Of a stretch of DNA of 64,000 bases, positions 3,246 to 59,583 are shown one piece after another. This stretch comes from an uncultured Clostridia bacterium. GTDB lineage: Bacteria > Bacillota > Clostridia > TANB77 > CAG-508. The stretch covers positions 45,467 through 109,466 of the forward strand of contig CANRGT010000002.1 in the NCBI GenBank assembly GCA_947630185.1, given 5' to 3'. How positions within the stretch are numbered: the stretch's first letter is position 1; the number at the start of each line of letters is the position of its first letter. The notes under the pieces were generated by a model. The model did not search any database and was not told where the DNA came from. It worked only from the letters and a program-made list of their open reading frames with translations. The translations under genes and the position numbers were made by a program.

Positions 3246-3273
3246 TTGAAAAAATAAATAAATGTGGTAAATT
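3246..3273 (+). promoter_or_regulatory. Putative sigma-A-type promoter of the A1-B1 cassette
   Basis: TTGAAA (3246-3251), a 16-nt spacer, then TGgTAAATT (extended -10-like, 3265-3273). It lies inside an ~80-nt block that is conserved upstream of A2 (14576-14653). Confidence 0.4.
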
Positions 3274-3319
3274 GATATTATAGAACAATTATGTTCATAA
3301 GAAGATTTAGGAGGTTACT

Positions 3320-6300
3320 ATGAGACTTAAGAAAAAAATTATATCAATAATCATGTTAGTAATATTACTTAGTGGCAACTTGTTAAATGTAGGTTCACAA
3401 GTAATAGCGTTATCAAGTACATTACCTGTACAAAATAGTAAAACAAATAGCTCTAATGTAGAATTTAATAGTTACTTAGAGGGTGGAGATCATGAGAAAA
3501 CACTTGATACATCAACAGGTGGTAATTTATACATTAAAGTAAATGTAAAAGAAAGTGGCTATTTAAGAAATGGAATAGTAGAACTAGAAAATCAAAATTT
3601 TGAAGTAGATAGTAGCCAAATAGAATCTAACTATATACAAAAAATAGAAAATGAAAAAATCTATTTGGAACAAATAAAAAGTGGCGAGGAAGTTTTAATA
3701 AGCTTACCAATCACTTTTAAAAAGGATGTTCAAATAGATAATGATTATTTTTCAAAAGATACAAGAATATATTTTAGTGGAAACTATATAAATGGAAATG
3801 GCGACGAGAAAAAAGTAGAAAAAACAATAACAAACAGAATAAAATGGCAAGCTAATCCAGAAATAGAAATAGAAGGAGAAGTGTCTAAATATATACCATA
3901 TCATAAAGATAATGAATATGGAGTTATGGTACAAAGTAAAATAACAACAGGAATAAAAGAAAATAAATTACCAATAGCAAAAACAAAATTACAAATAGAA
4001 GTACCAGAAATAAAACTTCCAAATACAGATGAAGAAGCACAAAATCAATTATCAGAAGAAATGTTAGTAGGAGAGCCAACGGAAGAATTTGAAAGTAAAA
4101 AACCAGAAAGGATAAGTGTTATTTCAAATTCCTTAAAAGCAACGAAAGGAAACTCAAGTGAAAATATATTTGGAAAAGAAAATTATACTTATAATAAAGA
4201 AGAAGGAAAAATAGTAATAGAAGTAAGTAATAGTGTTGCAGAAGGAAAAATAGCTTGGGGAGAAGGAAAAGACGAATACATAGTAACCTTTATATATGAA
4301 GGAAAAGAAGTATATGATTATATACAAGAGCAAATTAAAGAAGCAAAAGCAGGAAAATTATCAGAAGAAGAAATAAAGCAAGGAAAAACAAATGAGCAAG
4401 CAATAACAGGAGAAATAAAAGTAGGAGTAGAATTAGAAACTTATAACCCAGAAGAAGCTACAATAGGAATAGAAGGAGTAATTAACTATAGTATAGAAGA
4501 GGAAAAAGGAAACATAACAGAATTTAATGCAATAGCTAATGAAAAACTAAGTAAAGCATACATGTATGCAAATTATAGCAAGAAAGAAAATAAACAAGAA
4601 ACAGAATATAATGTAATATATAAAACAGACATATATGATACAAAATTAAATAAAAATATAGAATATGAGATAAAAAATGACAAAATAGAATATCAAAATG
4701 AAAAATACTTAAGTGGAAACAATACATATATAAAACAAATAAGAATATCAGAAGAAAACTTCAAAAAAATCCTAGGTGAAGAAGGAAAAATAGAAGTAAC
4801 CAAAAATGATGGAACAGTTATAGCAATAATAAAAAGTGAGCAAATAAATAGCCAGCAAGTAAATAATGAGCAAGACGAATTAGAAGAAGAGACAGAAAAT
4901 GTAAAAACAAGTTATTTAGATAATCAAACAAAAGATTATGTTTTAGATATAGTAGAAGAAAAAGCTTCAGAATTAAAAATAAAAACATCAGATTTAATAT
5001 CAGAAGGAACTATGAAATTAGAAATAACAAAAGCATTTAAAGGAAATGCAGAATACACAAAAGAACAAATGAAGCAAATAACAAAAATAGAAACAGAAGC
5101 TATAGCAAGAACAGATACAAACGAAAAAGTTTTAAGTAAGGAAATACAATTAGAAGAATTAACAAATAAAGCAGAGATAAGTATAGCACCAGAAAGTTTA
5201 TCAACAGTAGTAGTAAATAAAAATGTAGAGATAAGAGCAATATTAGATACATCAAATATAAATAATGCATTATATAAAAACCCTACATTAAAAATAAAAT
5301 TCCCATCATATGTAGACAATATAAAAATTAACAATAAAGATATTTTAATGAGTAATGGATTAAAAATAAAAAATGCAAATGTAGAAGTGGAAAATGGTCA
5401 ATCTGTAATTAATGTGACATTAGAAGGTGAACAAACAGACTATACACTAGATGCAGAATATATAGGAACAATCATATTATTAGATACAGATATAACAGTA
5501 AAAACATTAACACCATCAAATGAAAATAAGATAGAAATGATTTACATAAATGGAAATGACGTTGTAAAAGAAAAACAAGGAAAAGTAGAAACAAAAGTAA
5601 GTTTCGTAGCACCAACTGGAGTAGTATCAGCTAATGCAATAGCAAATTATGCTGAAAACAGTAAAGAAGTAATGTCAATATCAGATAAAACAGAAGAAAT
5701 ACAAATAGAAACATATAGTGATAAAAAAGTAGCAACAGTAACAGGAACAGTAGTAAATAATTATGGAAATAAAATAACAGACTTAAAAATATTGGGAAGA
5801 TTACCATCAAAGGATAATAGAAAAATAGATTCAGAAGAAGAAATAGGTTCAACCTTTGATGCAGTAATAAATTCAGAAATAAAAGTAACAGGTTTAGAAA
5901 ATTATAAAGTATATTATTCAAATAAAGTAGATGCAAATTCAAACTTAGAAGATGCAGAAAATGGATGGACAGAAAAATTTAGCAAAGAAGCAAAATCATA
6001 CATGATATTAGCAGATGAAGGCTATGAAATGAATGAACAAGAAGTAATAACCTTTAGCTATGATATAGAAGTACCAGCAAACTTAAGTTATAACAATAGT
6101 AGCTATGAGATGTATAAAGTATATTATACAAATACATCAGAAGTAGGAAGCTTAGAAGAAACAAAAGAATCACCAGTAATAGCATTAACAACTGGTGAAG
6201 GACCAGAATTAGATGTAAAACTAGAATCTACAGCAGATGTAATAAGAGAAGGACAAACAGTAAGAATGGAAGTAACTGTAACAAATACAGGAGATATGGC

Positions 6301-8530
6301 AGTTACAAATGCAAAATTAAATATTCCAAAACCAGAAGAAGCTAAATTATTAGATTATGAAATACCTTATGCATTTAATGAAGAAAGTTTAGAAAACAAA
6401 GAAATAGAATTAGGAACAATAAAACCAAAAGAAGAAGTAAAAATTACTTATTACTTAAGGATTGATCCACAAGTAAAAAGAATAGAAATCTATGAAGCTG
6501 AAAATGGCAAAAAATATATTAGAAATGAAGATGGAATATTAGAAGAATTTGATGGCGAGGTACCAGAACCAGAATTTACTACTCAAGTTACAGTCAAAGT
6601 AGATGAAATAGAAAAAGCAATTCCATCTAATGAGTATAAAAATGTTATAAAGGAAGGCACAATGAGCTTAGAACTAATAGGATGTGGTCAAGAAAGTGTT
6701 CCATTCTTAGTTGGAAGAGAATTAGAGTTTAAACTTTTTATATCAAAAATAGATGCTGATGCTGACTTAAGTAATGTAGTAGTAACAATACCATTACTTG
6801 ATAATATTACTTATAAAGAAGCATATATAATAACAAATGATAATCAAGATGGAATTAGAGATGGAATTACATATGATAAAGGTACTCACTCACTAAAAGT
6901 AAACATTAGTAATTTAAATTTTGATAAACAAATCATACATATAAAAGCAATAGCAAAAGATTTTAAAGGATTAACTTCTACTATGGCAGTAGCACAAGTA
7001 GAAGGAGGAGAAGAACATTATTCTAATTTAATTAGATATGAAGCACAATCTGCAAAAGTAAGAGTATCAGAGCTTAAAGCAACACCAAAATATGTAAAAG
7101 AAAGAGAAAAAATTACATATGAGTTTGATTTAATAAATGAAGGTTTAAGTTCAGTAGGAAATATTAGCATAGTAGATAAGCTACCAGATGATTTAATGTT
7201 TGTAGAAGCATCATATACATTTAATAATGGAAAGAATACAAGTAAAATTAGCAAAGCAACAGATAATACTGTAAAAATAGACATCAATACCTTGCAAGCA
7301 GGAGAAACTATGACAATTAAAATTATTGCAAAAGCAAAAGCTCTAGCAAATAAAAATGATAAACAAATAAGAAATAGTGCAGAAATATCATCAATATATT
7401 TCGACACAATTAAGACAAATACAGTAACAAATACAATTGAATATAATGAAGAAATACACCAAAAACCAGGTACAGGAGGTACTACAACTGAAACTAGATA
7501 TAAAATAACGGGAACAGCATGGTTAGATGAAAATAAAGATGGAAAACGTGATGAAACAGAAAAAGTATTAGATAACATACCAGTTATATTATTAAATAAA
7601 TTTAATAATACAATAGTAACAGATGTAGATACACAATTACAAAAAAGAGTCACAACATCAAATAATGGTACCTATGAATTTGGCAATCTTTTACAAGGAG
7701 AATATTTAGTAATATTCTTATATGATGCATCAAGTTATAGCTTAACAACATATAAAGCACAAGGAGTAGATGAAGGATTAAATTCAGATGCAATAGATAT
7801 AAATGTAGCCTTTGAAGGAGAAAAGAAAATAGCAGGTATTACAGATGTAATAAAAATAACAAATGCAAACATAAGAGATATAGATATAGGGTTATATGCA
7901 TCAGAAAAATTTGATTTAAGATTAGATAAATATATAAGTAAAATAACATTAACAACACCAACAATAGGAACAAGGGTAACAACATATGATAATACCCAAT
8001 TAGCAAAAGTAGAAGTTTTAGCTAAAAATGTAAACAAGAGTAACATAATAGTTGAATATAAAATTAAAGTAACAAATGAAGGAAAAATAGCAGGATATGC
8101 AAAGAAATTAGTAGACTATTTGCCAGAAGATGCAATGTTCATGTCAGAAGTAAATAATGATTGGTATTTATCAAACAATAGACGAGATGTATATAATACA
8201 AGCCTTGAAAATACAATAATAAATCCAGGCGAAAGTAAAGAAGTAACCTTAGTATTAAGCTTTAATATAACAGATAAAAACATAGGAAACATTGTAAATA
8301 ATAATGCAGAAATATATGAAAGTTATAATGAAGAAGGAAAAGAAGATTTAGATTCTATAGCAGGAAATAATAATTCACAAGAAGATGATATATCAAAAGC
8401 AGACATTATACTATCTGTAGTAACTGGTAAGTTAGTAGTAGGCTCAATTTTAATAGTAGTTATATTAGCAATACTAATATTTGGAATATATGAAATAAAA
8501 AAACAAGTATTAAAAAATAAAATAAATTAG
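3320..8530 (+). CDS. Large surface protein, A-type copy 1 (1736 aa), containing DUF11-like and SdrD-B-like repeat modules
   Basis: GGAGG RBS. An N-terminal signal peptide (KKKIISIIMLVILLSGNLLNVGSQVIALSS) is followed by an N-terminal module (SNVEFNSYLEGG...GYLRNGIVELENQNF) shared with A2 and the giant protein. It also has a DUF11-like motif (GQTVRMEVTVTNTGDMAVTNAKL) and an SdrD-B-like module (GTAWLDENKDGKRDETEK...NGTYEFGNLLQGEYLV). The C-terminus is SVVTG plus a TM helix plus a basic tail (YEIKKQVLKNKIN). Confidence 0.9.
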   Translation: MRLKKKIISIIMLVILLSGNLLNVGSQVIALSSTLPVQNSKTNSSNVEFNSYLEGGDHEKTLDTSTGGNLYIKVNVKESGYLRNGIVELENQNFEVDSSQIESNYIQKIENEKIYLEQIKSGEEVLISLPITFKKDVQIDNDYFSKDTRIYFSGNYINGNGDEKKVEKTITNRIKWQANPEIEIEGEVSKYIPYHKDNEYGVMVQSKITTGIKENKLPIAKTKLQIEVPEIKLPNTDEEAQNQLSEEMLVGEPTEEFESKKPERISVISNSLKATKGNSSENIFGKENYTYNKEEGKIVIEVSNSVAEGKIAWGEGKDEYIVTFIYEGKEVYDYIQEQIKEAKAGKLSEEEIKQGKTNEQAITGEIKVGVELETYNPEEATIGIEGVINYSIEEEKGNITEFNAIANEKLSKAYMYANYSKKENKQETEYNVIYKTDIYDTKLNKNIEYEIKNDKIEYQNEKYLSGNNTYIKQIRISEENFKKILGEEGKIEVTKNDGTVIAIIKSEQINSQQVNNEQDELEEETENVKTSYLDNQTKDYVLDIVEEKASELKIKTSDLISEGTMKLEITKAFKGNAEYTKEQMKQITKIETEAIARTDTNEKVLSKEIQLEELTNKAEISIAPESLSTVVVNKNVEIRAILDTSNINNALYKNPTLKIKFPSYVDNIKINNKDILMSNGLKIKNANVEVENGQSVINVTLEGEQTDYTLDAEYIGTIILLDTDITVKTLTPSNENKIEMIYINGNDVVKEKQGKVETKVSFVAPTGVVSANAIANYAENSKEVMSISDKTEEIQIETYSDKKVATVTGTVVNNYGNKITDLKILGRLPSKDNRKIDSEEEIGSTFDAVINSEIKVTGLENYKVYYSNKVDANSNLEDAENGWTEKFSKEAKSYMILADEGYEMNEQEVITFSYDIEVPANLSYNNSSYEMYKVYYTNTSEVGSLEETKESPVIALTTGEGPELDVKLESTADVIREGQTVRMEVTVTNTGDMAVTNAKLNIPKPEEAKLLDYEIPYAFNEESLENKEIELGTIKPKEEVKITYYLRIDPQVKRIEIYEAENGKKYIRNEDGILEEFDGEVPEPEFTTQVTVKVDEIEKAIPSNEYKNVIKEGTMSLELIGCGQESVPFLVGRELEFKLFISKIDADADLSNVVVTIPLLDNITYKEAYIITNDNQDGIRDGITYDKGTHSLKVNISNLNFDKQIIHIKAIAKDFKGLTSTMAVAQVEGGEEHYSNLIRYEAQSAKVRVSELKATPKYVKEREKITYEFDLINEGLSSVGNISIVDKLPDDLMFVEASYTFNNGKNTSKISKATDNTVKIDINTLQAGETMTIKIIAKAKALANKNDKQIRNSAEISSIYFDTIKTNTVTNTIEYNEEIHQKPGTGGTTTETRYKITGTAWLDENKDGKRDETEKVLDNIPVILLNKFNNTIVTDVDTQLQKRVTTSNNGTYEFGNLLQGEYLVIFLYDASSYSLTTYKAQGVDEGLNSDAIDINVAFEGEKKIAGITDVIKITNANIRDIDIGLYASEKFDLRLDKYISKITLTTPTIGTRVTTYDNTQLAKVEVLAKNVNKSNIIVEYKIKVTNEGKIAGYAKKLVDYLPEDAMFMSEVNNDWYLSNNRRDVYNTSLENTIINPGESKEVTLVLSFNITDKNIGNIVNNNAEIYESYNEEGKEDLDSIAGNNNSQEDDISKADIILSVVTGKLVVGSILIVVILAILIFGIYEIKKQVLKNKIN
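5488..6337 (+). repeat. A1 copy of the ~850-nt near-identical tract shared with A2 (partner 16714..17563)
   Basis: The two tracts align without indels at a constant offset of 11226 nt. I count about 16 substitutions, and 5802-6262 is identical to 17028-17488. Confidence 0.9.
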
Positions 8531-8550
8531 TAAGAAAGGAGGAAACTAAT

Positions 8551-11500
8551 ATGATAAGAAAGAAAATGAAAAAAGTATTAAGATTCATCTTATTAATGAG
8601 TATAATAAATTTGCTCATAGTAGGTATATTCCAAAAAAGTACTGTTTCTGTAGCGGTTGTAGATGCAGGAATAATGACAATAAGCAATGGTACTACAGAT
8701 GGTAGTTTTACAATAGAACCTAGTGAATTAGCAGATAAAAGAATGTCAGAAAAGGGTCCAGATGATATAGATTGGAAAACCTTGCCTGATGATTATGACG
8801 AAAGTAAAGGTGGATTACAAGTAAGTACTTCAGAAACTACATATAAATATACAGATGAAAATGGTACAGAACATAATTATTTAGTATGCGATACATTAAA
8901 GACAGAAGATGGAAAAGCCGTAGCGCCAATGATAGGTGATAATCCAGTTTATTGTATTGACCCAGGAGGCCATGTAAGTACAAGTAAAATTAATGGTGAC
9001 TTAACCATGGCAAAATATAAAGAGTTACAAGCAAAATATAGTGAAAATGATGGCATAGTAGAAAAAAATGACTGTATATACGAAGATGGTCATCTTGACG
9101 GTTGTGGTAGCACAACTACAGAAACGACACCGATATATTATGAAGAAGAAGGTACATATCCACTATCTGCTGAAGAAGCATTTATAGTTTCAGCAGATGG
9201 AGGAGAATGGAGTTTGGATAAAAATAGAGCACTTTGGAATATACAACAAAGAGAAGCAGAAGCAAATGGTAAGTCATTTCCAACAGATTATAATGGAAAA
9301 GGAGAAAGTACATTATCTCAGCCTGCAGCCGAATATGCAGAATTTTATGACCGTGTATTGAATGAAGGAGGTCTATCTCCACAAGACTCTACAGGAGGTG
9401 TTGCATTATTACAACCAAATTACGATACACAAACGTATACGGCAGGACCATTTAGTATTGATTATAATGATGCTTGTACTGAATTAGGAAATGGAGGAAT
9501 ATCTAGTATAAATATTATAGGGTTTACTACAGATGGCCAGAGAGTGGGGTTAGGAGAAGCTCTTGACAGTAGTGGTAATAAATTTGATTACTATAAACCA
9601 GATGAAAATGGTGAAGATAAAGATGGAATGAACTGTCCTAAATCAGGTGATGGATTCTTTACAAGTTTTAGTAATCCAAATGATGGAAGTAGAGATAGTT
9701 ATATTTCAACTATTTCTGTAGAAGTAACCTTTCAATATATGTTAGCTTTTGGGCAAGAAACAAAATATAAAGGACATCAATGGAAAATTGATTATAAAGT
9801 GGGTGATGAAGGAGAGCACAGCTGTGAGCAAACATCATCAAGAACAAAGACATTAGAAGAATGGCAAGAAGAAAACCCAGATAAAGATTCAAGCGAATAT
9901 AAGTATGATGAAACAGTTGACGAAACAGTAACAGTTACAGATCAATCTTGTGTAAAAAGAGCTACATGTAGTGATTGTGCTCTTGACCCAGGAATACAAG
10001 AAATATCAATAAAAAAGGCAGAAAGATTTTATTATACTGAAACTATAGTATTACAGATAGATGTTCCAACACCAGGAGATGATGATAACACAGATGATGA
10101 TAACGATGATGACGATATAACACCAACCCCAACAGGAAGAATAACAGAAAGAACAACAGGAACACCAACCCCAACAGGAAGAATAACAGGAAGAACAACA
10201 GGAACACCAACCCCAACAGGAAGAACAACAGGAACACCAACACCAACAGGGAAAACAACAGGAACGCCAACAGGGACACCAACGCCAACAGGGAAAACAA
10301 CAGGAACACCAACACCAACAGGAGGAACAACTGACGACGATAATGACGACGATGATGATGATGACGATATAACACCGACACCAACACCAACACCAACGCC
10401 TACACCACCAGGAGAGGTAGTTAATCCACCTAGCCTTTTCATAAATTTAGGTGGAAAAGTATGGGAAGATACAGTAGAAGGAAATAAAGAAACTGTTTCA
10501 AACGGATTATTGGATTCAGGTGATAAACCGCTAAAAAATGTAAAGGTAACCTTGTATACATCAGATGGACAGTTAGCTAAAGTATATCAAGGAAAAAATA
10601 CTAAAAATGTATACTCACATATTAATCCAACGTATACGGATGCAGATGGTACTTATTTATTTAAGTATATAGATCCAATGAAAAAATATTATGTAACTTT
10701 TGAATACAATGGACAAGTATATATCCCAACAGATTATCTAAAACAAGATACGAATGGTAACAGTAATTGGACCATAAATTCAAAAGCAACAGAAAACTTA
10801 GATGGTACAGATATTTATGGTAACTCCGATGGAAATGGAAGAAATCAATATGATGAACGTTTTGCCTCAATTGGTTCATATCCTAACAATTATGTAACTA
10901 ATAATTCATTAGGATATTTAAGTGCAAATACAGATGGTAAAATATATAATAAAACCTTTAGTAAATTAGAATTGATGGGAATTACTTTAGGAACAGATGG
11001 AAAATATTATTATAATCCAAATAATCAATTAATAGATTATGAAGATTTAGGATATGATGCGGTTGATTCACAAGGAAATCAAGCTCCTAAAAAGGATGAA
11101 AATGGAAAAGCAGTAAAAGATGGTATAATTTCAACAAAAGTTAGAGAATATATTGAAAAAAACAAGGCTTTCCCAGATATGAAAACAGTTTATAATGACA
11201 TAATCCAATCAAGTAATGACCCAAATATAAAAGAAAAATTACAATTTATAGAAGATTGTAAAATAACATCATACACTAAATCACAATCTGCAGTAAAAGG
11301 ACAATGGGATTTATATCCAACAATCAATAAATTCAGTATAAATGATAGAATTATTGAAGATGGTGAAGGTGGAGGAACATTTACGGATGAAGATGGAAAC
11401 GAATATAACTTAAAGCTAAAAGAAAATATGGATTATGAATCATGGAAGGAATTTGTTGAAAAACAAGGCTCATATTGGAATGGTCAAGATGGAATGATAG

Positions 11501-14364: not shown

Positions 14365-14374
14365 TAAAGTAAAA

Positions 14375-14406
14375 AAGAGATGATTTAAATATCATCTCTT
14401 TTTTTG
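14375..14406 (+). terminator. Rho-independent terminator after B1
   Basis: A perfect 10-bp stem, AAGAGATGAT (14375-14384) with ATCATCTCTT (14391-14400), has a 6-nt loop and runs into a T-tract ending at 14406. Confidence 0.8.
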
Positions 14407-14578
14407 CTATAAATATTTAATTATATTTGTAAATAATAACATTTTCAAATATTAGAATTATTAATATAAAGATTATAAAATTATAAAAAAATGCAATATA
14501 AACTTAATATATTGACATAAATATATGATTTCTGTAAACAAAATTTACATTTTTTGTATATTTCTAGGCGAAAAAGCA

Positions 14579-14606
14579 TTGAAAAATGAAAAAAATGTGA
14601 TATAAT
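14579..14606 (+). promoter_or_regulatory. Putative sigma-A-type promoter of the A2-B2 cassette
   Basis: TTGAAA (14579-14584), a 16-nt spacer, then an extended -10 TGaTATAAT (14598-14606). It is positionally equivalent to the A1 element. Confidence 0.5.
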
Positions 14607-14653
14607 TGATATTATAGAATAATTATGTCTAAAAATAAATTTAGGAGGTTACT

Positions 14654-17600: not shown

Positions 17601-19771
17601 TTTCTGAGCAGGTAGCTGATGAAAAAACAATTGATATAGGAACAATAAAACCAGGCGAAACTATAACAAAAAGCTATTATATTAAAATAGATAATTCAAT
17701 TCCAAGTCCAAAAACTTATAAAGATAGTGATGGAAACATATATATAGATGACGAAGATGGAACAGTTAAAAAACTAGAAGATGGTAAATTACCAGAAACT
17801 GAATTTACAAGCAAAGTTACTATCATCGGAGACCAAATGCAAAATGGTATTCCTTCAAATGAATATAAAAATACAATAAAAGATGGAGAAATAAAATTAC
17901 AATTAATAGGAAGCATTGAAGATAGTACACCACTATTAAAAGGACAAGAAACAAAATATAGAGTTAATATAAGTTATATAGGAAGCGAAAGTGAATTAAA
18001 AGATATAACAGTAAATATTCCATTATTACCAGGAACTAATTATAAAGAAGCAACATTAGAACAAGAAAATGGGGTAACAAGTAGAAATACTATTAGTTAT
18101 GATAAGAATACACATACATTACAAGTAAAAATAGACACTCTAACTACTACAGAGCAAGTAATACGTATAACATTAGAAGGAAAAGAGTTTGACGGAGTAA
18201 GTTCTATGAGAGCAATTGCAAAAAGTGCTGAAGGAGAAGAACATTATTCAAATACTTTAGAGTATGAATCAGCAAAAGTAAAACTAGAGATATCTGAACT
18301 TACAACAACACCAAGATATGTAAAAGAAGGAGAAACAATTACATATAAATTTGACATCAAAAATATAGGAGACATAATTGCAGAAAATATTAAGATAGAA
18401 GATGTTATACCTGATGAATTTTTATTTACAGAATTATCTTATACAACTGATTCAGGTGTACAACATATTACTAATATAAGTAATAATACAGCTAGAACTG
18501 TTATTTCACAACTACCTGTTGGAGCAAGTGCAAGCATAACAATTATTGTAAGAGCAAAAGTATTAAATGGAGAAGAAGACAAGCAAGTTAAAAATACAGT
18601 AAAAGTTTCAGCTCAATATTTTGAAGAAGTACAAACAAACACAGTAACAAACACAATAGAATATAATGAAGAATTACATAAAGAACCATCATCAAACCCA
18701 AATCAAGGTGGAACAACTACATCACCAACAACACCTAAATATAAAATAGCAGGAACTGCATGGTTAGATGAAAATAAAGATGGAAAACGTGATAACACAG
18801 AAAAACTTTTAAGTAACATACAAGTTGTATTATTAAATAAAGTAAATAATATGGTTGTAAACGATATAAATACAAACGAACCAAAAAGAACTACAACATC
18901 AAATAATGGAACATATGAATTTGCAAATATTATGCCAGGTGAATATTTAGTACTATTCTTATATGATGCATCAAGCTACAGTTTAACTAAATATAAAACA
19001 GAAGGCATAGATGAAGGATTAAATTCAGATGTAATAGATATAAATACTGTATTTGATGGAGAAAAGAGAGTTGCAGGTATTACAAACATAGTAAAAATTA
19101 CAGATTCAAATGTAAGAGATATCGATATAGGTTTATATGTAGCAGAAAAATTTGATTTAAGACTAGATAAATATGTAAGTAAAATAACATTAACAACTCC
19201 AACAATAGGAACAAGAGTAACACCATATAATGATGAAAAATTAGCAAAAGTAGAAATATTAGGAAACAACGTAAACAAGAGTAACATAATAGTAGAATAC
19301 AAAATAAAAGTAACAAATGAAGGAAAAATACCAGGATATGCGAGAAAATTAATAGATTACTTACCAGAAGATGCAATGTTTATGTCAGAAGTAAATAGTG
19401 ATTGGTATTTAGCAAGCAACAATCAAGATGTATTTAACACAAGCTTAGCAAATACAATAATAAATCCTGGAGAAAGCAAAGAAGTAACATTAGTATTAAG
19501 CTTTAATATAACAGATAAGAACATAGGAAATATTATAAACAATAATGCAGAAATATATGAAAGCTATAATGAAGAAGGAAGAGAAGATTTAGATTCATTA
19601 GCAGGAAATAATATATCACAAGAAGATGATATATCAAAAGCAGACATTGTGTTATCAGTAGTAACTGGTAAATTAGTAGTAGGATCAATCTTAATAGTAG
19701 TAATATTAGCAGTATTAGCATTCGGAGTATATGAAATAAAAAGACGAGTATTAACAAAGAAAGTAAACTAA
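14654..19771 (+). CDS. Large surface protein, A-type copy 2 (1705 aa), paralog of 3320..8530
   Basis: It has the same RBS context (ttaggaggttactATG), a near-identical signal peptide and N-terminal module, the same DUF11-like and SdrD-B-like modules, and the same C-terminal SVVTG plus TM plus basic tail. The central ~850 nt are ~98% identical to A1. Confidence 0.9.
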   Translation: MKMRRKILATIMLIILLSGNLLNVGSQVIALASTLPTQNSKTNNSNVEFNSYLEEGESHDKTFEVSKGGKLYINLKVKENGYLKDGVIEFQNSNFNLDSSQIESEYIQKIENGKIYLEQMQSGEECVIELPIEFAKSEKIDSDYFSKEVKTLFTADYINGNGNEKKIQKEVVNKIGWQVESEIEIEGKLNKYLPYHIGEEYGVIFQSKIDLGIKDNKAPIAKTNLEVEVPTINNQEAERVSVVLNSNKEDEVEEKNITTYNYEKENQKVMIETVREKDEEGKIDWEEGKDEYIVTSVYTGEEVYNYVNNKLKEAEAGKLTEEEIKEGQVNDKAITGNILATANIETYDGKSSTVEIGRKGSYVVEGPIGKITDINVESPKEISKGYLYANYDKEENKQETIYDITYITPIYDKVLNSSIEYQINNDKVEYEGELYSAENNIYVKQIKISKTNFIKLLGDSGSIKVSKKDGTVIGIIVSDETRAVINNLPEDALMNTFDDENGSYVLNIEKQKLSELLIETSTPKSEGRLVVTLTKAFSADNNYTKDQMKELTKIQTEVIERTGIDSKTITSDIKLTEVTNKAEININPESLSTVIVNKDVGIRAVLDTSSINYALYKNPTLKIRFPSYISDVKLNSKNILMNNGLKIKSVNVEKEDGVPVINIILEGTQSDYTLDAEYKGTIILLNADITVKTLTPSNENKIEMIYINENDVVKEKQGKVETKVNFVAPTGVVSANAIANYAENSKEVMSISDKTEEVQIETYSDKKVATVTGTVVNNYGNKITDLKILGRLPSKDNRKIDSEEEIGSTFDAVINSEIKVTGLENYKVYYSNKVDANSNLEDAENGWTEKFSKEAKSYMILADEGYEMNEQEVITFSYDIEVPANLSYNNSSYEMYKVYYTNTSEVGSLEETKESPVIALTTGEGPELDVKLESTADVIREGQTVKMNVTVTNTGDMAVTNAKLNIPKPEYAKFSVYTYNMGFSEQVADEKTIDIGTIKPGETITKSYYIKIDNSIPSPKTYKDSDGNIYIDDEDGTVKKLEDGKLPETEFTSKVTIIGDQMQNGIPSNEYKNTIKDGEIKLQLIGSIEDSTPLLKGQETKYRVNISYIGSESELKDITVNIPLLPGTNYKEATLEQENGVTSRNTISYDKNTHTLQVKIDTLTTTEQVIRITLEGKEFDGVSSMRAIAKSAEGEEHYSNTLEYESAKVKLEISELTTTPRYVKEGETITYKFDIKNIGDIIAENIKIEDVIPDEFLFTELSYTTDSGVQHITNISNNTARTVISQLPVGASASITIIVRAKVLNGEEDKQVKNTVKVSAQYFEEVQTNTVTNTIEYNEELHKEPSSNPNQGGTTTSPTTPKYKIAGTAWLDENKDGKRDNTEKLLSNIQVVLLNKVNNMVVNDINTNEPKRTTTSNNGTYEFANIMPGEYLVLFLYDASSYSLTKYKTEGIDEGLNSDVIDINTVFDGEKRVAGITNIVKITDSNVRDIDIGLYVAEKFDLRLDKYVSKITLTTPTIGTRVTPYNDEKLAKVEILGNNVNKSNIIVEYKIKVTNEGKIPGYARKLIDYLPEDAMFMSEVNSDWYLASNNQDVFNTSLANTIINPGESKEVTLVLSFNITDKNIGNIINNNAEIYESYNEEGREDLDSLAGNNISQEDDISKADIVLSVVTGKLVVGSILIVVILAVLAFGVYEIKRRVLTKKVN
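16714..17563 (+). repeat. A2 copy of the ~850-nt near-identical tract shared with A1 (partner 5488..6337)
   Basis: Same evidence as for 5488..6337. Confidence 0.9.
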
Positions 19772-19792
19772 AAGGAGAGGAGGAAAAATAAA

Positions 19793-22700
19793 ATGCGAAC
19801 TAAAAAGATGAAACAAATCTTTAGAGTAAGTATACTAATGATAATGGTAACATTAATTATAGTAGGAATATTACAATTAACAATTGATAGAATAAAAGCT
19901 GTTACCGATCCTGATGTAGAAATTGTACCAAATGAAGATGAATATGGCGTAGAAATAGTACCAGATGGTGCAGGTACATTAGTATCTGGCGACCCATATT
20001 CAAAGTTTAATGTTCCAGCAGGTGCAAAAGACTTACCATGTTTAGAATTAGGACCAGGTGATTTAGCTCCTCTAATTGAAGGTTACGAAGTTTATTGTAT
20101 AGAGCCAAAACAAGGACATGTAACACCAGGATTAAGAACTAGAAAATCTGGTGGAGGATATTTTACAAAAACTGAATTACAAGGTTTAGCATCACAGTTT
20201 AAAGAATCAAAATGTACTACAAATACAAAACTACCAGAATATGGACATGCTAAAATAACATGGAAAGAAATCTCACAAACACCTTGGTATAATACCAATA
20301 CAGGTGAGACTGACTATTATAACACAGTAGAAAAAGTAGAATTAGTAGAGCATACTAAAGTAACAATGCCATCAAAAATAGTAACACCACCATTATTCTC
20401 TACAAAAGAAGTAATACAATTAAGTCCAGCTATGGCATATATAGTATCTTCTGATCCAAAAGGACAATGGACAGAAGAAAAACAATATGCAATCTGGAAT
20501 TTAAGAGGAAAACAAGTATTTAATGAAGCAACAGGTGATTATGAAAGTGCAGATGGAAGCGCAATTGTAGGTACAGGAACAGAAGAATATCCTAACCCTG
20601 AAGTAGGAGGTGCTGCAGATGGACTTACAAACGAAGCACTTCGTTATGCAGAATATCATAATAAAGTAGAAGCAAATGGTGGATTAAATCCACAAAACAC
20701 ATCATCAGGAGTTTTCCCTAGAGTTGATATGGCAACAGGAAATTATACCTTTGGACCATTTAGTATGACCTATGTTGATGATGGAACAGCTTTTGATGGA
20801 GGAAAATCTTTTGCAGGAATTACAGAAATGTATGTTATGGGATATAACTCATTTGGAGCTTGTATAGGACAACTTCCAATTTCAAGTATTATGCTTGGAG
20901 ATGGTGCAACAGGAGGATATGGAGGAGGAAGCTCTTTACAATTCTTCACTCCATCAGGAAGTGAACTAGTAGATACTAATAAACAAGTATATCCAAAATC
21001 AGGACAACAGTTTTTCGTAACAATAAGTAACCCAAATGTTGGAAAAACTTCAGAAGAACAATGTGTAACATCTATTTCTGTAAAAGTAAAATTTCAATAT
21101 ATGTTAGCATCTGGTGAAGCAGCAATATTAGAAGGTAAACAATATACAGCTACACTAACTGCTAATGAAAAAGTACACGAGCATACTGGAGATTGCTATG
21201 ATGGAACTACAAAGCATACCAAAACAGTTGAAGACACAGATAATTGGATAGACGAATATTGGGAAAGAACTGATGAATATGGCACTACAATAACAACAAC
21301 TACAAAGCCAGATCCAAATGATGGATATAACTGGACTCATGTTGCAGGACATTATGGAACAAAAGTTGTTGATGAAACAGCTTATGGATGTAAAATAGAT
21401 GTTTCAATTAGTTCAACAGATCAACAAGAAGTAATGATACCAGATGCAAACAGATTACTTTATGAACAAGAATTAGACTTATATGCATCAATTCCAACAC
21501 CACCAGGAGATGATGATGATGATACACCACCACCTCCACCACCAGGAGATGATGATAATGACGACGATGATGATGATGATGAAAAATTAGTATTTGATTA
21601 TTTTGACTTTTCATTTAACTTAGGTGGAAATGTATGGGAGGATGCTGGAGTAGGAAAAGAAGGTTTACAAGATGGACGTAATACAACTGATATTCCAGGT
21701 TCTGAAGATATAAGTCTTAAAAATATAAAAGTAACACTATATTTTGCAGATACTAATGAATTAGCTTGGCCAATAAATACAAGTAGAAAAACAGCTTCAA
21801 ATATGTATGCATATATAAACCCAACATATACAGACGAAAATGGTAAATATGAATTTAGAGGCTTAGACCCAATGAGAAAATATTACGTTAAATTCGAATA
21901 TGATGGACAAATATATATGCCAACTGAGTATTTAACAAATATAGATGTAGATGGAAGTATGAATAAAGACAAACCTAATTATTATAATATAGAAGATATG
22001 ATTAATAATGGCTTGTATAATACAGATGCATGGCAAAGAACTTCAAAAGCAACAGAAAAAAATAGTGAAAAAACTATATACGATAATAGATTTGGAACAA
22101 TTGGTTCATACCCAGAAAACTATGTAACAACTAATTCCTTAGGCTTGCTTCAAGGTACATATAACACAACCTTTAGTAGATTAGATTTAATGGGTTATAC
22201 TTTAGGAACAGATGGAAAATATTATTACGATAGATCAAAACAACTATTAGATGGATATCTATATGATGAACAAGGAATAGAAACTAATCAATATCAAGAA
22301 GGTATAGTAACTGAAGCAATTAAACAGTTTATTATGGGAGATGGAATTACACCAGGAAGCTATAGATACCCTAATGATCAAGAATTAAGAAATATATATC
22401 TAAGAATAGTAAATGGTAATGTAGAAACTGCTAAGAAATTACAATTTATTGAAGATTGTAAAATGTCAGCTTATACTAAACCACAAAGTAGTGAAGATAT
22501 TAGTACATATGATAACTATTTGACTTTAAACCAATTTACTAATAACTTAGATTCAGAAGAACATTCTACATATGTTAAACAAGTTCTACAACCAGATGGA
22601 ACATATAAAGAGGTAGAAGTTACTATTAACATTTATCATTATACATTACTTGATGGTGGAGCAAATTATATAAACTTAGGTTTAGTAAGAAGATCACAAA

Positions 22701-25420
22701 ACGACTTATCACTTACAAAAGATGTATATAAAGCAGCATTAACAATAAATGGACAAACACAAACATATACATATAATGGTGATGACGAAGATGATGAAAG
22801 ATATTGGGAAATTAGTGCAAGAATTTCAGATTATGCAGCATACTATTCACCTACATATAATAGAGAATTATACCCAGCAGATACTAAGGTGGATTTAGAA
22901 AATACACAAGGTAAGAGATTAGATGTATATGTTACATACAAATTATCAATTAGAAATACAGCATCATTACTAGCACAAGTAGATGAAGTAGTAGATTACT
23001 ATGATGAAGATTATGTATTTATGCCTAATATGTCATGGGTAATGTACAAAGGAGAACAAGATGATAGAAGAATAAATAATGTTAGTGATAAAGAATACTT
23101 AAAAATTATAGAAGGACAAAGCTTAGACGGAGCAAACGAACTTTATAGACAAGAAAGTTATGCAACAAATAATGATAAGTATAAACCAGTACAATCAAGT
23201 GATACTGGAATGTATTCAGAAAATACAAGATATAATGATGAACTAAGAAACTTAGGATATAAGACAATTTATATCAATGGGTTAAAAGACAATAAGTTAT
23301 CAACAGGAGGAACAGGATATATCTACTTAACATTTAAATTAGGAAGAGCTTCAGATTATAGCCTACTTCTAGATAACGATGAAAATAGTTCAAAGAAAAA
23401 TATTGCAGAAGTAAATGGATACTCAACATGGTACAATAATGGACAAGTATTACCAAATGGAATTACAAAATCTTCAAATGACCATGCTGGTATAATAGAT
23501 AAGGATTCTAACCCAGGTAACTTTAATGATGCTACATTAAGAGCAATACAATCAACACCACAAGGACAACAAATTTATGAGCATAATTTTGAAGACGATA
23601 CAGATAGAGCAAAAGGAATAAGAATATATGCAGATAGTAGCTTAACAAGAAAAATAGAAGGTATAACATGGGAAGACAAGAGAACATATTCACCAAGTGA
23701 TACAAATGCACTTATAGGAAACGGCTTAAGAGAAGATGGTGAAGTAGGAGTAGAAGGCGTACAAGTAACTTTGCATGAGGTAACTAAAACACCTGATGGA
23801 AAAGTAACAGTAGATCCAAATGTGGCAAAAATATATAATAAAGATACAGGAAACTTTGTAGATGCAATCACAACTACAGCTTCAGATGGAACATATAATT
23901 TTGAAGGATATATACCAGGAGATTATATAGTAAGATTCACATATAATGGAAAAACATATAATGCACAAGACTATAAATCAACAAGTTATCAAATGGATTT
24001 ATCTACAGGAGCAAAAATAGACCAAAATGGAAGAACAGATATTAGTGGTGACGATGTACCAGGATATGTAGGATATACAGATTTAAACGGACAAAATGAA
24101 TCAGCTAAATATGGCTATGATATTGCTAAAGCAGATGAATTTGGATTAAGAGTATCAGATGCAAAAGACATTTGGAGCATAAGAGAAGGAGTAAATAATA
24201 AATACTCACATAGTGTAACAAATGCTATGGCAGAAGAACAAGCATATGGCAAAAATGTAGACGGAACTGTTAAATATGAAGAAATGATAGCAGAAACAGG
24301 TGTAATAAGAGTAGAAGTAGAGTATAACAGAGAGTTTTCAGTAGGAAGCAATAAAGAAAGCAACAATTCAGACGACATGAAATATGCTAATGGAAATGAA
24401 TATAATGGAAACTATGTAATACAAGACTTAGACTTCGGCTTAGAAGAAAGACCAAAAGCAGGATTAGAATTAGACAAGAAAGTAAGCAATGTAAAAGTAA
24501 CACTTGCAGATAGAACAGTATTATTTGATGCAACACAAAGTGTAGAAGATTTAATCTGGCAACCAAAAGAAAGCTACAATATAAATGATATGAAAAACAA
24601 TACAGAATATGATACAGTAGGACCAAATGCATCTAATCCAGAAAGAGTATATAGTGATTACACAAGATACAATGACTTTAGACAAGCAGTATTAGAGAGG
24701 GTAGCAACAATGGTAAATAGCAATAAAGGTTTAATCCAAGTAACAATGGACGAAGAAATAATGCATGGTGCAACAATAGAAATAACCTATGACATGACAG
24801 TTACAAATATAGGTGAAGAAGACTACAATGAAACATCATTCTACTATATAGGAAAAGTAGCTGATAAAGATAATATTGTAAAAACATCAGCAGACTTAAC
24901 TTTAGACTATGTACCAAATAATTTGAAATTTATAAAAGATCAAAATGCAACATGGAATTGGAACACAATTACTCAATCAGATATTAGTGCAAATGGATAT
25001 GTAAATGCAAAGTTGCAAGAAGAAAAAATAAACGGAAAATATAATACAATTCTTACTACAGATGCATTAAAGAAAGATTTAGTTCCAGTAGGAAGCGGAA
25101 ATGTAAATAGTAGCGTAGCAAATACAAAACTAATATTAACACAAACAATAACATCAGAAAACATATCAGATGATTTATCATATGATAACATTGCAGAAAT
25201 AGTATCAATTTCAAATACAGTAGGTAGAAGAATGGCATACTCAATACAAGGAAATCAAGACCCAACAGCAGAACCAGCAGAACCAGATGCAAGTAAAGCA
25301 GAAAATGTAGTTATTTTACCACCATTTGGTACACACTACCTATACATTGGATTAGGCATAGTAATAGTAGCAATAGTAGCAGTAAGTGCAATTGTTATTA
25401 AGAAAAGAATATTAAAATAA
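19793..25420 (+). CDS. Large surface protein, B-type copy 2 (1875 aa), paralog of 8551..14364; putative Cys-Gln thioester-domain adhesin
   Basis: An AGGAGAGGAGG RBS precedes the start, which is 21 nt after the A2 stop. It has a signal peptide and an N-terminal domain with EVYCIEPKQGH and EEKQYAIWNL motifs. The linker is short (PPGDDDDDTPPPPPPGDDDNDDDDDDDE). The SdrD-B-like and DUF11-like modules are collinear with B1. The C-terminus is LPPFG plus a TM helix plus KKRILK. Confidence 0.9.
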   Translation: MRTKKMKQIFRVSILMIMVTLIIVGILQLTIDRIKAVTDPDVEIVPNEDEYGVEIVPDGAGTLVSGDPYSKFNVPAGAKDLPCLELGPGDLAPLIEGYEVYCIEPKQGHVTPGLRTRKSGGGYFTKTELQGLASQFKESKCTTNTKLPEYGHAKITWKEISQTPWYNTNTGETDYYNTVEKVELVEHTKVTMPSKIVTPPLFSTKEVIQLSPAMAYIVSSDPKGQWTEEKQYAIWNLRGKQVFNEATGDYESADGSAIVGTGTEEYPNPEVGGAADGLTNEALRYAEYHNKVEANGGLNPQNTSSGVFPRVDMATGNYTFGPFSMTYVDDGTAFDGGKSFAGITEMYVMGYNSFGACIGQLPISSIMLGDGATGGYGGGSSLQFFTPSGSELVDTNKQVYPKSGQQFFVTISNPNVGKTSEEQCVTSISVKVKFQYMLASGEAAILEGKQYTATLTANEKVHEHTGDCYDGTTKHTKTVEDTDNWIDEYWERTDEYGTTITTTTKPDPNDGYNWTHVAGHYGTKVVDETAYGCKIDVSISSTDQQEVMIPDANRLLYEQELDLYASIPTPPGDDDDDTPPPPPPGDDDNDDDDDDDEKLVFDYFDFSFNLGGNVWEDAGVGKEGLQDGRNTTDIPGSEDISLKNIKVTLYFADTNELAWPINTSRKTASNMYAYINPTYTDENGKYEFRGLDPMRKYYVKFEYDGQIYMPTEYLTNIDVDGSMNKDKPNYYNIEDMINNGLYNTDAWQRTSKATEKNSEKTIYDNRFGTIGSYPENYVTTNSLGLLQGTYNTTFSRLDLMGYTLGTDGKYYYDRSKQLLDGYLYDEQGIETNQYQEGIVTEAIKQFIMGDGITPGSYRYPNDQELRNIYLRIVNGNVETAKKLQFIEDCKMSAYTKPQSSEDISTYDNYLTLNQFTNNLDSEEHSTYVKQVLQPDGTYKEVEVTINIYHYTLLDGGANYINLGLVRRSQNDLSLTKDVYKAALTINGQTQTYTYNGDDEDDERYWEISARISDYAAYYSPTYNRELYPADTKVDLENTQGKRLDVYVTYKLSIRNTASLLAQVDEVVDYYDEDYVFMPNMSWVMYKGEQDDRRINNVSDKEYLKIIEGQSLDGANELYRQESYATNNDKYKPVQSSDTGMYSENTRYNDELRNLGYKTIYINGLKDNKLSTGGTGYIYLTFKLGRASDYSLLLDNDENSSKKNIAEVNGYSTWYNNGQVLPNGITKSSNDHAGIIDKDSNPGNFNDATLRAIQSTPQGQQIYEHNFEDDTDRAKGIRIYADSSLTRKIEGITWEDKRTYSPSDTNALIGNGLREDGEVGVEGVQVTLHEVTKTPDGKVTVDPNVAKIYNKDTGNFVDAITTTASDGTYNFEGYIPGDYIVRFTYNGKTYNAQDYKSTSYQMDLSTGAKIDQNGRTDISGDDVPGYVGYTDLNGQNESAKYGYDIAKADEFGLRVSDAKDIWSIREGVNNKYSHSVTNAMAEEQAYGKNVDGTVKYEEMIAETGVIRVEVEYNREFSVGSNKESNNSDDMKYANGNEYNGNYVIQDLDFGLEERPKAGLELDKKVSNVKVTLADRTVLFDATQSVEDLIWQPKESYNINDMKNNTEYDTVGPNASNPERVYSDYTRYNDFRQAVLERVATMVNSNKGLIQVTMDEEIMHGATIEITYDMTVTNIGEEDYNETSFYYIGKVADKDNIVKTSADLTLDYVPNNLKFIKDQNATWNWNTITQSDISANGYVNAKLQEEKINGKYNTILTTDALKKDLVPVGSGNVNSSVANTKLILTQTITSENISDDLSYDNIAEIVSISNTVGRRMAYSIQGNQDPTAEPAEPDASKAENVVILPPFGTHYLYIGLGIVIVAIVAVSAIVIKKRILK

Positions 25421-25435
25421 TACGACATAATTAAT

Positions 25436-25494
25436 AAAAAGAAGATTGTTCAATTTTGAGTAAAATCAAAATTTTAAAACAATCTTCTTTTTTT
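25436..25494 (+). terminator. Rho-independent terminator after B2
   Basis: A perfect 15-bp outer stem, AAAAAGAAGATTGTT (25436-25450) with AACAATCTTCTTTTT (25478-25492), encloses an inner 8-bp stem (AATTTTGA/TCAAAATT). A T-run follows. Confidence 0.75.
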
Positions 25495-37982: not shown

Positions 37983-38146
37983 AAAAAAACGTAATAAAAA
38001 TAAGTATATTGGTCTTAATTTTAATTTCAGTATTAATAGGACGGATATTTTTTATTAAAAGAAAATTACATATACATGATAAAATGGTGGGGAACATTAA
38101 TCTTAGTAGGACTTATATTTTTCCCAACATTTTCTATAGTGTTTAA
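37979..38146 (+). CDS. Possible 55-aa small membrane protein (below the ORF-track cutoff)
   Basis: Its ATG overlaps the TGA stop of the AI-2E gene (ATGA coupling). The product is MKKNVIKISILVLILISVLIGRIFFIKRKLHIHDK..., one TM helix plus a basic stretch. Its 3' 70 nt overlap the start of 38076..40391 in another frame. There is no independent support. Confidence 0.3.
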   Translation: MKKNVIKISILVLILISVLIGRIFFIKRKLHIHDKMVGNINLSRTYIFPNIFYSV

Positions 38147-59366: not shown

Positions 59367-59583
59367 TATTGGGTAAATTTTAAAATAAACATAAAATACA
59401 CTTTAAATCTCGTTATGTTAATTTAAATAAAAAGAGGAATTGTTCTATAATTCCTTACGGAAATGGGATGTTTGGAGAGCAGGAACAAAACATTTCGTAA
59501 ACCAATTATAGAAACAAGAAGGACTTTTTATTTAATCATCATAAATATTTTTTTCTGCTTAATATTTATTAGGGGTGATTTTT

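Follow-up and report, generated by a model that had tools for sequence, protein, structure and literature searches.

A paired operon for giant C-terminally anchored surface proteins, conserved in an uncultured lineage of gut Clostridia

Two genes for giant surface proteins that are copied together, in the same order and with nearly the same spacing, raise the question of whether their products are made to work together or merely to be made together. We met this question in an uncultured Clostridia bacterium of CAG-508, a major family within the uncultured order TANB77 (PMC11680825), in a contig stretch (GenBank assembly GCA_947630185.1, contig CANRGT010000002.1, positions 45,467 to 109,466, forward strand) that was analysed as a whole and is hereafter called the window (64,000 nucleotides [nt], or 64 kb; G+C content ~28%). 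The interval between minC and spoIIE holds four very large same-strand open reading frames, A1, B1, A2 and B2, and these constitute tandem copies of one two-gene operon, A1-B1 (3320-14364) and A2-B2 (14654-25420), exactly where two consecutive A-B units had been placed by the original prediction, which was made from the sequence by itself. The explanation toward which we lean, with confidence slightly better than even, is that the A-B operon is the lineage's conserved surface-attachment apparatus, composed of two fibrillar, C-terminally anchored proteins, of which A would be a rod and B its variable-headed companion.

Operon structure and pairing across species

The two units of the window differ from each other by unequal amounts along their length. 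Identity between A1 and A2 is 63% over the full length; between B1 and B2 it is 50% for residues 601-1937 and 27% for the N-terminal ~440 residues. Resemblance between A and B is confined to the SdrD_B-type segments and the last ~100 residues. B1 and B2 start 20 and 21 nt, respectively, behind their A genes, and the strong ribosome-binding site that had been predicted for each is present (AAGGAGG for B1, GGAGAGGAGG for B2).

To follow the pair beyond this genome we used a profile search with A, restricted to one genome per species, which gave 76 loci (L001-L076) from gut metagenome-assembled genomes (MAGs) of humans, rabbits, mice and ruminants, including Clostridium sp. CAG:508, CAG:567 and CAG:273. 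Word-indexed protein searches with B1 and with a profile of the trimmed B head returned neither B1 nor close B orthologues; such orthologues are nonetheless present in the species genomes, and an orthologue of B2 (P0137, 74% identity) is present in the representative library. The B1 search was probably swamped by the low-complexity linker of that protein. Because these searches failed, B orthologues were collected from the loci found through A. More than 130 full-length A homologues were obtained, of very constant length (~1560-1770 residues) and without informative names, the few named ones being entered as "hypothetical protein" or "uncharacterized repeat protein" from Clostridia MAGs.

In every one of the 76 species loci a B homologue directly follows the A homologue, with gaps that cluster at 14-25 nt (median ~18-19 nt), and the usual gene order is penicillin-binding protein-minC-A-B-spoIIE. 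A second A or A-B unit is present in ~13 of the 76, copy number ranges from 1 to 3 units, and a best-hit analysis indicates that the pair has been duplicated as a unit at least three to five independent times: separate duplications are seen in the window together with L001 (paralogues 63% identical), in L076 (61%), in L040, in L064, and in a group of rabbit MAGs in which the paralogues are 42-50% identical and each copy has its own orthologues. The pairing extends to distant relatives. For six distant B-like proteins an A-type gene again lies ahead or is part of a fusion (P0126, the fusion, and those of L086, L088, L089, L090 and L091). Among such proteins, P0122 sits in a B-A-B-A-B array; P0133, P0127 and P0135 each lie behind an A-type gene; and the gene 18 nt upstream of P0136 ends in ...ISISTG and a transmembrane segment. 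Given this linkage in all 76 loci and the pairing of the distant relatives, A and B homologues are clearly not genes that usually occur unlinked, and the earlier proposal that a fixed A-B pairing has been retained through duplication is upheld well beyond the two copies on which it was based.

Some of these relatives show unusual arrangements. P0126 (2299 residues) begins as a short A-type protein (...ISISTG, transmembrane segment, KK) and continues directly with the signal peptide and body of a B-type protein; this may be a natural A-B fusion, or else a stop codon or frameshift was missed. The locus L086 (1-22590) reads B-A-B-A-B, and some relatives carry at least three tandem units. In L090 (911-18201) a second B-type gene call of 3046 residues has extra SpaA domains and a Peptidase_M23 match, perhaps because of a real fusion, perhaps through a gene call that ran on.

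Tandem genes for large adhesins, such as sdrC-sdrD-sdrE, are common in Gram-positive bacteria, and one could envision A and B as independent adhesins that share an operon and are co-regulated without touching, A binding a conserved ligand by way of its conserved tip and B variable ones. Each protein is architecturally complete, with its own signal peptide, stalk and anchor, and one A-type paralogue in the window (gene G, 43965/43986-58514) exists without a B. Such independence, however, would not readily account for absolute linkage, a fixed A-then-B order and a spacing of 14-25 nt over 76 species and their distant relatives, or for the repeated duplication of the pair and never of one of its genes by itself, a constraint that exceeds what co-regulation alone usually imposes, and we consider it unlikely, if still a serious contender. 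The same linkage, order, spacing and unit-wise duplication argue for mutual dependence of A and B, a step that we infer; a physical partnership between the two proteins, whether as a stalk with a covalent tip or as a co-assembled fibre, is plausible but unproven.

The upstream regions also point to a single transcription unit. Conservation of about 80 nt ahead of both A genes had been noted, and the identity between the A1 and A2 upstream regions in fact falls mostly within the ~85 columns that precede the ATG. Among the upstream regions of 77 orthologous A genes, the -35 hexamer TTGAAA is present in 75 and the -10 hexamer TATAAT in 62; a match of 11/12 to the sigma-70 consensus is found in 63/77, the median distance from the -10 element to the start codon is 39 nt, and the ribosome-binding site is close to TTTAGGAGGTTACT. 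Because TTGAAA and TATAAT are conserved across these 77 genes, the similarity of the A1 and A2 promoters is more than a by-product of duplication. Upstream of the B genes there are background promoter matches only (mean 8.5/12). Judged by this single conserved promoter before A and the lack of one before B, each unit is one operon, and the near-consensus, vegetative-type promoter argues for strong constitutive co-transcription of A and B; high vegetative expression is suggested solely by the quality of the promoter and of the ribosome-binding sites. The hairpin terminators that had been predicted to close the units both fold strongly and are followed by U-runs (Table 1), and an Rfam scan of the whole window, leaders included, found no RNA element. 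A sporulation-specific role, which the neighbouring spoIIE might suggest, was rated unlikely, the conserved TTGAAA/TATAAT promoter being a vegetative one.

A conserved rod and a variable head

Protein A had been read as a signal peptide, a distinctive N-terminal module, DUF11-like and SdrD-B-like modules, and a tail of SVVTG plus a transmembrane segment. This architecture was found in both copies: the tails were located, and the Pfam matches lie above their cutoffs in A1 (DUF11, 53.5 bits, cutoff 24.6; SdrD_B, 46.4 bits, cutoff 29.7) and in A2 (53.7 and 47.1 bits), with NCBIfam model TIGR01451 matching A1 and A2 as well. DUF11, now called CLIPPER, is a CnaA-like isopeptide domain typical of the stalks of fibrillar adhesins, and CLIPPER and SdrD_B are both stalk domains of such adhesins (PMC12617251).

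A sequence search of the PDB with A1 gave no match. With 54 homologues, AlphaFold2 modelled residues 28-1227 of A1 as a confident beta-sandwich rod, almost wholly beta (mean predicted local distance difference test score [pLDDT], 87.3), and with this model Foldseek returned only proteins built of many beta-sandwiches (complement C3/C5, alpha-2-macroglobulins, mastigonemes and integrin legs). With TM-scores of ~0.1, the match is a generic one between repeated beta-sandwiches. An A protein like alpha-2-macroglobulin or complement, the proteins that headed the Foldseek hits, was rejected, since low E-values were accompanied by TM-scores of 0.08-0.15 and root-mean-square deviations of 24-57 Å, and the model contains no helical domain. 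Mean pairwise identity among A homologues is 0.32-0.51 over residues 1-1000, 0.22-0.28 in a variable region at 1000-1400, and 0.48-0.57 near the anchor. As modelled, A is a long conserved rod without a recognisable binding head.

Protein B is laid out as a signal peptide, a head of ~450-530 residues, an acidic/Pro-Thr linker, a stalk of ~1300 residues with two SdrD_B-type modules, and the tail. Pfam places SdrD_B at residues 632-748 of B1 (35.6 bits, above the cutoff of 29.7) and at residues 1309-1399 of B2 (28.6 bits, just below it); these positions are not equivalent, and since B1 and B2 are homologous at both, each B protein has two modules. Most of the architecture predicted for B stands (the YCI[DE]P motif, the acidic linker, two SdrD-B-like modules, and LPPFG with a transmembrane segment). 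The exception is a DUF11-like module, which has no Pfam support and the sole support for which is that the last ~100 residues are 34% identical to the tail region of A. In B1 the linker (residues 506-625) is built of about eight TGTPTPTG(R/K)TT repeats and a (TP)n run between stretches of poly-Asp, and it could be a region of glycosylation or of length variation; B2 has just a short Asp/Pro linker. A PDB sequence search with B1 was again without a match, and Pfam recognised no adhesive domain in A or B. Mean pairwise identity among B homologues is 0.30-0.53 in the stalk and 0.17-0.28 in the head, and no other part of the locus evolves as fast as the head.

When 1.84 billion representative proteins were searched exhaustively with HMMER, only 38 turned out to be related to this head. 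Certain positions in it are nevertheless kept: the Cys of YC[IV][EQD]P in 67/72 B homologues (and in every sequence of a trimmed alignment of 15), the Gln of a KQxA[IL]W motif in 59/72 and its Trp in 66/72, together with several aromatic, Gly and Pro positions. A candidate Gln strand, Q[QD]x-phi...R-x-phi, occurs by pattern in 55/72, a few of them at clearly non-equivalent positions, and the strand, a candidate partner of the Cys, lies outside the part of the head that was modelled; it usually precedes the first SdrD_B module, where that module was located, by ~30-35 residues, and includes Q483 in B1 and Q544/545 in B2. Neither the 72-homologue nor the trimmed alignment has a conserved His in the head, which argues against a Cys-protease or transglutaminase, and that reading was rejected.

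Motifs of this kind recall thioester domains, by which adhesins capture a ligand covalently. Such domains are defined by [YFL]C-phi-zeta, TQxx-phi-W and phi-Q-zeta-phi-phi, and in them the Gln and Trp of TQxx-phi-W are not essential for bond formation (PMC6194298). The Cys of the B head fits [YFL]C-phi-zeta, KQYAIW of B2 fits TQxx-phi-W, and by sequence comparison VYCIDP of B1 matches, residue for residue, the sequence surrounding Cys68 in the pLS20 adhesin, in which this Cys is essential (PMC8092201). By hhalign, the heads of distant B-like proteins, which are shorter, are homologues of the B head (97.2% probability, E 3e-11), and one of these proteins, P0136, has a sub-threshold match to the thioester-domain family PF08341 (E 0.0027; 18.6 bits, cutoff 22), which is the only link to that family and an indirect one.

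The nearest known counterparts of B are thus the TIE proteins (SfbI, CpTIE, BaTIE, TIEpLS20), with which it shares a signal peptide, an N-terminal head with a Cys motif, QxAxW and a candidate downstream Gln, followed by a linker, an isopeptide-type Ig stalk (SdrD_B) and a C-terminal motif with a transmembrane segment and basic tail. Unlike them, B has no significant profile or structural match to a thioester domain, its head is much larger (~350-440 residues from the Cys to the candidate Gln), its anchor motif is LPPFG rather than LPXTG, and it is always preceded by the partner gene A.

Surface layers (S-layers) may consist of two proteins, as in SlaA/SlaB and in the high- and low-molecular-weight subunits of SlpA, and by this likeness A and B could be the main structural coat of the cell, an S-layer or sheath equivalent in which two abundant membrane-anchored proteins tile the surface. 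A locus that is core and syntenic in every species examined, and in which the promoter is near consensus, the ribosome-binding site is consensus and the terminators are strong, as fits very highly expressed genes, would suit a coat, as would the lack of a Pfam-recognisable adhesive domain in either protein. The architecture, however, is fibrillar, with strings of Ig-like domains and a flexible linker rather than a compact lattice unit; the head of B is hypervariable and has a conserved, reactive-looking Cys/Gln signature; SLH and CWB2 wall-binding modules have no Pfam or NCBIfam match in A or B; and the number of units varies from 1 to 3. We therefore regard a coat as very improbable.

Anchoring and assembly

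The C-terminal tails were examined in 84 A and 72 B homologues, with motif counts for B taken from 70 of them, and in both proteins they are tripartite, a short motif being followed by a hydrophobic segment and a basic tail. In A the motif is [SGT][ILV]xTG, without Pro, and its TG is invariant in an alignment of 26 sequences and present in nearly every readable tail. In B it is [LTI]PP[FTY]G, most often LPPFG (46/70), with Thr before the Gly in ~11/70; TPPTG or IPPTG is found in the deeper branches of B, and distant relatives have mostly xPPTG (TPPTG, LPPTG, IPPTG), which is of the LPXTG type. Despite these differing motifs before the membrane, A and B have in common an IKK[KRH]VL sequence behind it (66/84 A tails, 48/72 B tails). 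The tails of the window span 8414-8530, 14260-14364, 19655-19771 and 25316-25420, and gene G has a similar one, with IRHVVL. Ordinary sortase signals have a generic basic tail only. The shared IKKxVL suggests a cytoplasmic tail that is either recognised by something common to A and B or retained, and it points to a common anchoring route, which may be a sortase encoded elsewhere or simple membrane retention.

Taken with the tails, the surface-attachment apparatus that we favour may be pictured as follows. Each operon would be driven by a strong sigma-A-like housekeeping-type promoter and would encode two Sec-secreted fibrillar surface proteins of ~1700-1900 residues each, both anchored at the C-terminus. 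A would be the conserved component, a rigid rod built from at least ten Ig-like beta-sandwiches, with the conserved module at its far tip and with CLIPPER (DUF11), SdrD_B and CLIPPER-like domains at its cell-proximal end. B would be the variable component, carrying a fast-evolving head on a flexible acidic/Pro-Thr linker and an SdrD_B-containing stalk; its head would capture a ligand, possibly covalently through the Cys/Gln, and A may act as a scaffold, spacer, co-receptor or docking partner for B. Ligand capture by the head, covalent or not, is here something that we infer from its features.

Several results weigh against this reading. No match to Pfam PF08341 or NCBIfam TQXA was found in B1, B2, 58 orthologue heads or 10 representative matches, and PDB profile searches with the B head came back empty. 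When the head was aligned by hhalign to nine annotated thioester-domain proteins of class II, drawn from annotated plasmid proteins (the pLS20 TIE family, Listeria and Carnobacterium), the probability was below 1% and the Cys motif alone was aligned. The AlphaFold2 model of the B2 head (residues 40-480, 12 sequences) has a pLDDT of 48, and Foldseek found no match to it at E <= 0.001, its hits being noise. In B1 the QxAxW Gln column is occupied by Asn (KNRALW, residues 224-229), the only such case among the 72 homologues; the closest orthologue of B1 (in L001) keeps the Gln. As to anchoring, we know of no sortase cleavage context with Phe before the Gly, as in LPPFG; an NCBIfam scan of A1, B1, A2 and B2 yielded no anchor model for either tail; and sortases were found neither in the window, by Pfam scans and a catalytic-motif scan, nor by the latter in the flanks of 10 kb on either side of the 76 loci (~1.9 Mb), which bears out and widens the earlier remark that the window contains no sortase. 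Lastly, gene G is a third, expanded A-type paralogue without a B partner, and because the A-type N-terminal module also heads this gene, the module is not exclusively tied to B.

The reading of B as a covalent tip adhesin, given as one example in the original prediction, retains the thioester-domain-like motifs and goes without a significant profile or fold match, the comparison with thioester-domain profiles in Pfam, NCBIfam, the PDB and hhalign having given nothing significant. The B2 construct that was modelled ended before the candidate Gln strand (~545), and the order of elements in the low-quality model (three helices, the second with QxAxW, then a beta-rich part) is compatible with a thioester domain but not diagnostic of one. 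By motif the B head is thioester-domain-like, and unconfirmed as such; the chances that it forms a thioester appear about evenly balanced.

The presence of two different sorting-type motifs in A and B also invites comparison with a sortase-assembled two-component pilus, in which a pilus-type sortase would join B, as the tip adhesin, via PP[TF]G to a lysine of A, and A would be attached to the wall via xxxTG. Pilus islands normally carry their own sortase, and here none is linked to the pair, whether in the window or within 10 kb on either side of the 76 loci. Nor is there a conserved pilin-motif lysine (in B the Lys within YPxSG is not kept, and in A no more than 45/117 sequences have K41); Phe, rather than Thr, precedes the Gly in most B tails, and an IKKxVL conserved behind the membrane segment would be unexpected in a piece that is cleaved off and discarded. 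The ancestral B motif is LPXTG-like, as judged by TPPTG, LPPTG and IPPTG in distant relatives; SrtB of Clostridioides difficile accepts the non-LPXTG motifs SPKTG, PPKTG and NVQTG (PMC4155245); and sortase pili are known to carry thioester-domain adhesins at the tip, Cpa being an example (PMC8092201). On balance we hold such a pilus to be quite improbable. Compared with the SrtB substrates, the S[VIL]xTG of A resembles NVQTG/SPKTG and the PPTG of B-type tails resembles PPKTG, although the A motif has no Pro and most B tails have Phe before the Gly. Compared with pili of the Cpa/FctA kind, A and B are alike in being two co-transcribed proteins with differing sorting-type signals, the thioester-like head of B being a possible tip; they differ in lacking a linked sortase, a conserved pilin lysine and a small shaft pilin, and in that both proteins are giant and both carry the conserved cytoplasmic tail motif.

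A related alternative is a single, covalently joined A-B fibre assembled by an undescribed route, in which either the Cys/Gln head of B or an unlinked sortase-like enzyme would couple B to the distal module of A; in the latter case the enzyme would recognise the xxxTG and LPPFG signals together with the shared IKKxVL tail. We consider this distinctly unlikely. If true, however, it would give an uncultured order a type of surface appendage of its own, a candidate for the contact of TANB77 with the host or with partner microbes, and the interest of the locus would rise sharply should A and B prove to be one covalent appendage.

Returning to the surface-attachment apparatus, its recognisable building blocks and its overall type, a Gram-positive fibrillar or TIE-like adhesin, are already known. 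Like other fibrillar adhesins with CLIPPER and SdrD_B, A and B are both long and have a signal peptide, CnaA/CnaB-like Ig stalks and a C-terminal anchor. Unlike them, A lacks an adhesive head that can be recognised, its length (~1560-1770 residues) and sequence are unusually conserved, and where fibrillar adhesins are normally encoded by single genes and vary in repeat number, here there is an obligatory two-protein gene pair at a core syntenic locus. What is new is, first, that two genes are obligatorily paired in this way across 76 species loci and in more distant relatives; second, that the paired anchoring signals are non-canonical and share a tail motif; and third, that a large family of Cys/Gln heads escapes the current thioester-domain models.

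TANB77/CAG-508 is an uncultured, reduced-genome gut lineage that has been linked to the response to cancer immunotherapy. In a study of TANB77 the only surface structure described is a Tad-type pilus cluster, and sortases and adhesins are not mentioned (PMC11680825). To this the A-B operon adds, for the related species examined here, a second surface structure that is conserved and probably highly expressed, and that has a B head varying strongly from species to species. It offers targets for the study of attachment to host or partner, for antibodies, for enrichment or cultivation handles and for strain typing.

Gene G and the genomic setting

The original prediction had placed a third A-type module at the N-terminus of the giant gene at 43986, and the alignment of A with G agrees, in two collinear segments (A 7-195 with G 77-278, and A 618-944 with G 679-1010). 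G likewise ends in SVKTG and a transmembrane segment, and at its N-terminus a long extension rich in Lys comes before the membrane segment. Directly upstream of G are the genes of a two-component system, with a response regulator at 40821-41537 and a histidine kinase at 41667-43658. Coordinates for G and for the parts of the two units are collected in Table 1.

Table 1. Positions of the A-B units, their control elements and gene G in the 64-kb window
Feature	Position	Strand	Remarks
Unit 1 promoter	3246-3273	+	TTGAAA-16-TAAATT, TG before the -10
Unit 1 leader	3274-3319	+	short 5' leader; consensus ribosome-binding site TTTAGGAGGTTACT ahead of A1
A1	3320-8530	+	1736 residues; open reading frame, Pfam and alignments
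A1 signal peptide	3320-3415
A1 conserved N-terminal module	~3422-3919		followed by the beta-sandwich rod
A1 CLIPPER/DUF11	7085-7426
A1 SdrD_B	7508-7804		followed by a final CLIPPER-like domain
A1 SVVTG	8414-8428		followed by transmembrane segment and IKKQVL tail
A1-B1 spacer	8531-8550	+	20 nt; contains B1 ribosome-binding site AAGGAGG
B1	8551-14364	+	1937 residues; signal peptide
B1 variable head	8668-10065
B1 YCIDP	8950-8964		Cys135
B1 KNRALW	9220-9237
B1 candidate Gln strand	9991-10011		Gln483
B1 poly-Asp/Pro-Thr linker	10066-10425
B1 SdrD_B	10444-10794		followed by the stalk
B1 LPPFG	14260-14274		followed by transmembrane segment and IKKTVL tail
Unit 1 intrinsic terminator	14368-14408	+	17-bp stem, then U-run; -18.0 kcal/mol, z -7.1
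Unit 2 promoter	14579-14606	+	TTGAAA-16-TATAAT, 11/12 consensus, TG before the -10
A2	14654-19771	+	1705 residues; architecture as in A1
A2 CLIPPER	18305-18646
A2 SdrD_B	18746-19045
A2 SVVTG	19655-19669
B2	19793-25420	+	1875 residues
B2 head	19910-21493
B2 YCIEP	20093-20107		Cys102
B2 KQYAIW	20480-20497
B2 candidate Gln strand	21419-21439
B2 acidic/Pro linker	21494-21592
B2 SdrD_B	23717-23989
B2 LPPFG	25316-25330		followed by transmembrane segment and IKKRIL tail
Unit 2 intrinsic terminator	25436-25492	+	long stem, then U-run; -20.1 kcal/mol, z -5.4
G	43965/43986-58514	+	4849 residues; A-like N-terminal ~1000 residues; 10 SpaA, 3 MucBP, Cna_B, DUF11 and DUF7927 domains (Pfam)
G SVKTG	58326-58340		A-type tail

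The surrounding genes are of ordinary Clostridia kinds, for housekeeping and for sporulation. Upstream of A1 lie minC and a gene for a penicillin-binding protein, spoIIE is directly downstream of the second unit at 25740-28268, and rpoB is at 59575. The 1.5 kb between minC and the A1 promoter is filled by three small minus-strand open reading frames (1952-2962; 107, 148 and 85 residues), which are rich in Asn, Gln and Ser, and two small minus-strand genes occupy the equivalent position in L089. Just 3' of spoIIE, at 28364-29890, is a gene for a 508-residue protein with WG-containing repeats of the beta-propeller type (PF14903, E 2e-32), unrelated to A and B, and between the two adhesin regions, at 38076-40391, is one for a 771-residue multi-pass membrane protein of the DUF2298 family.

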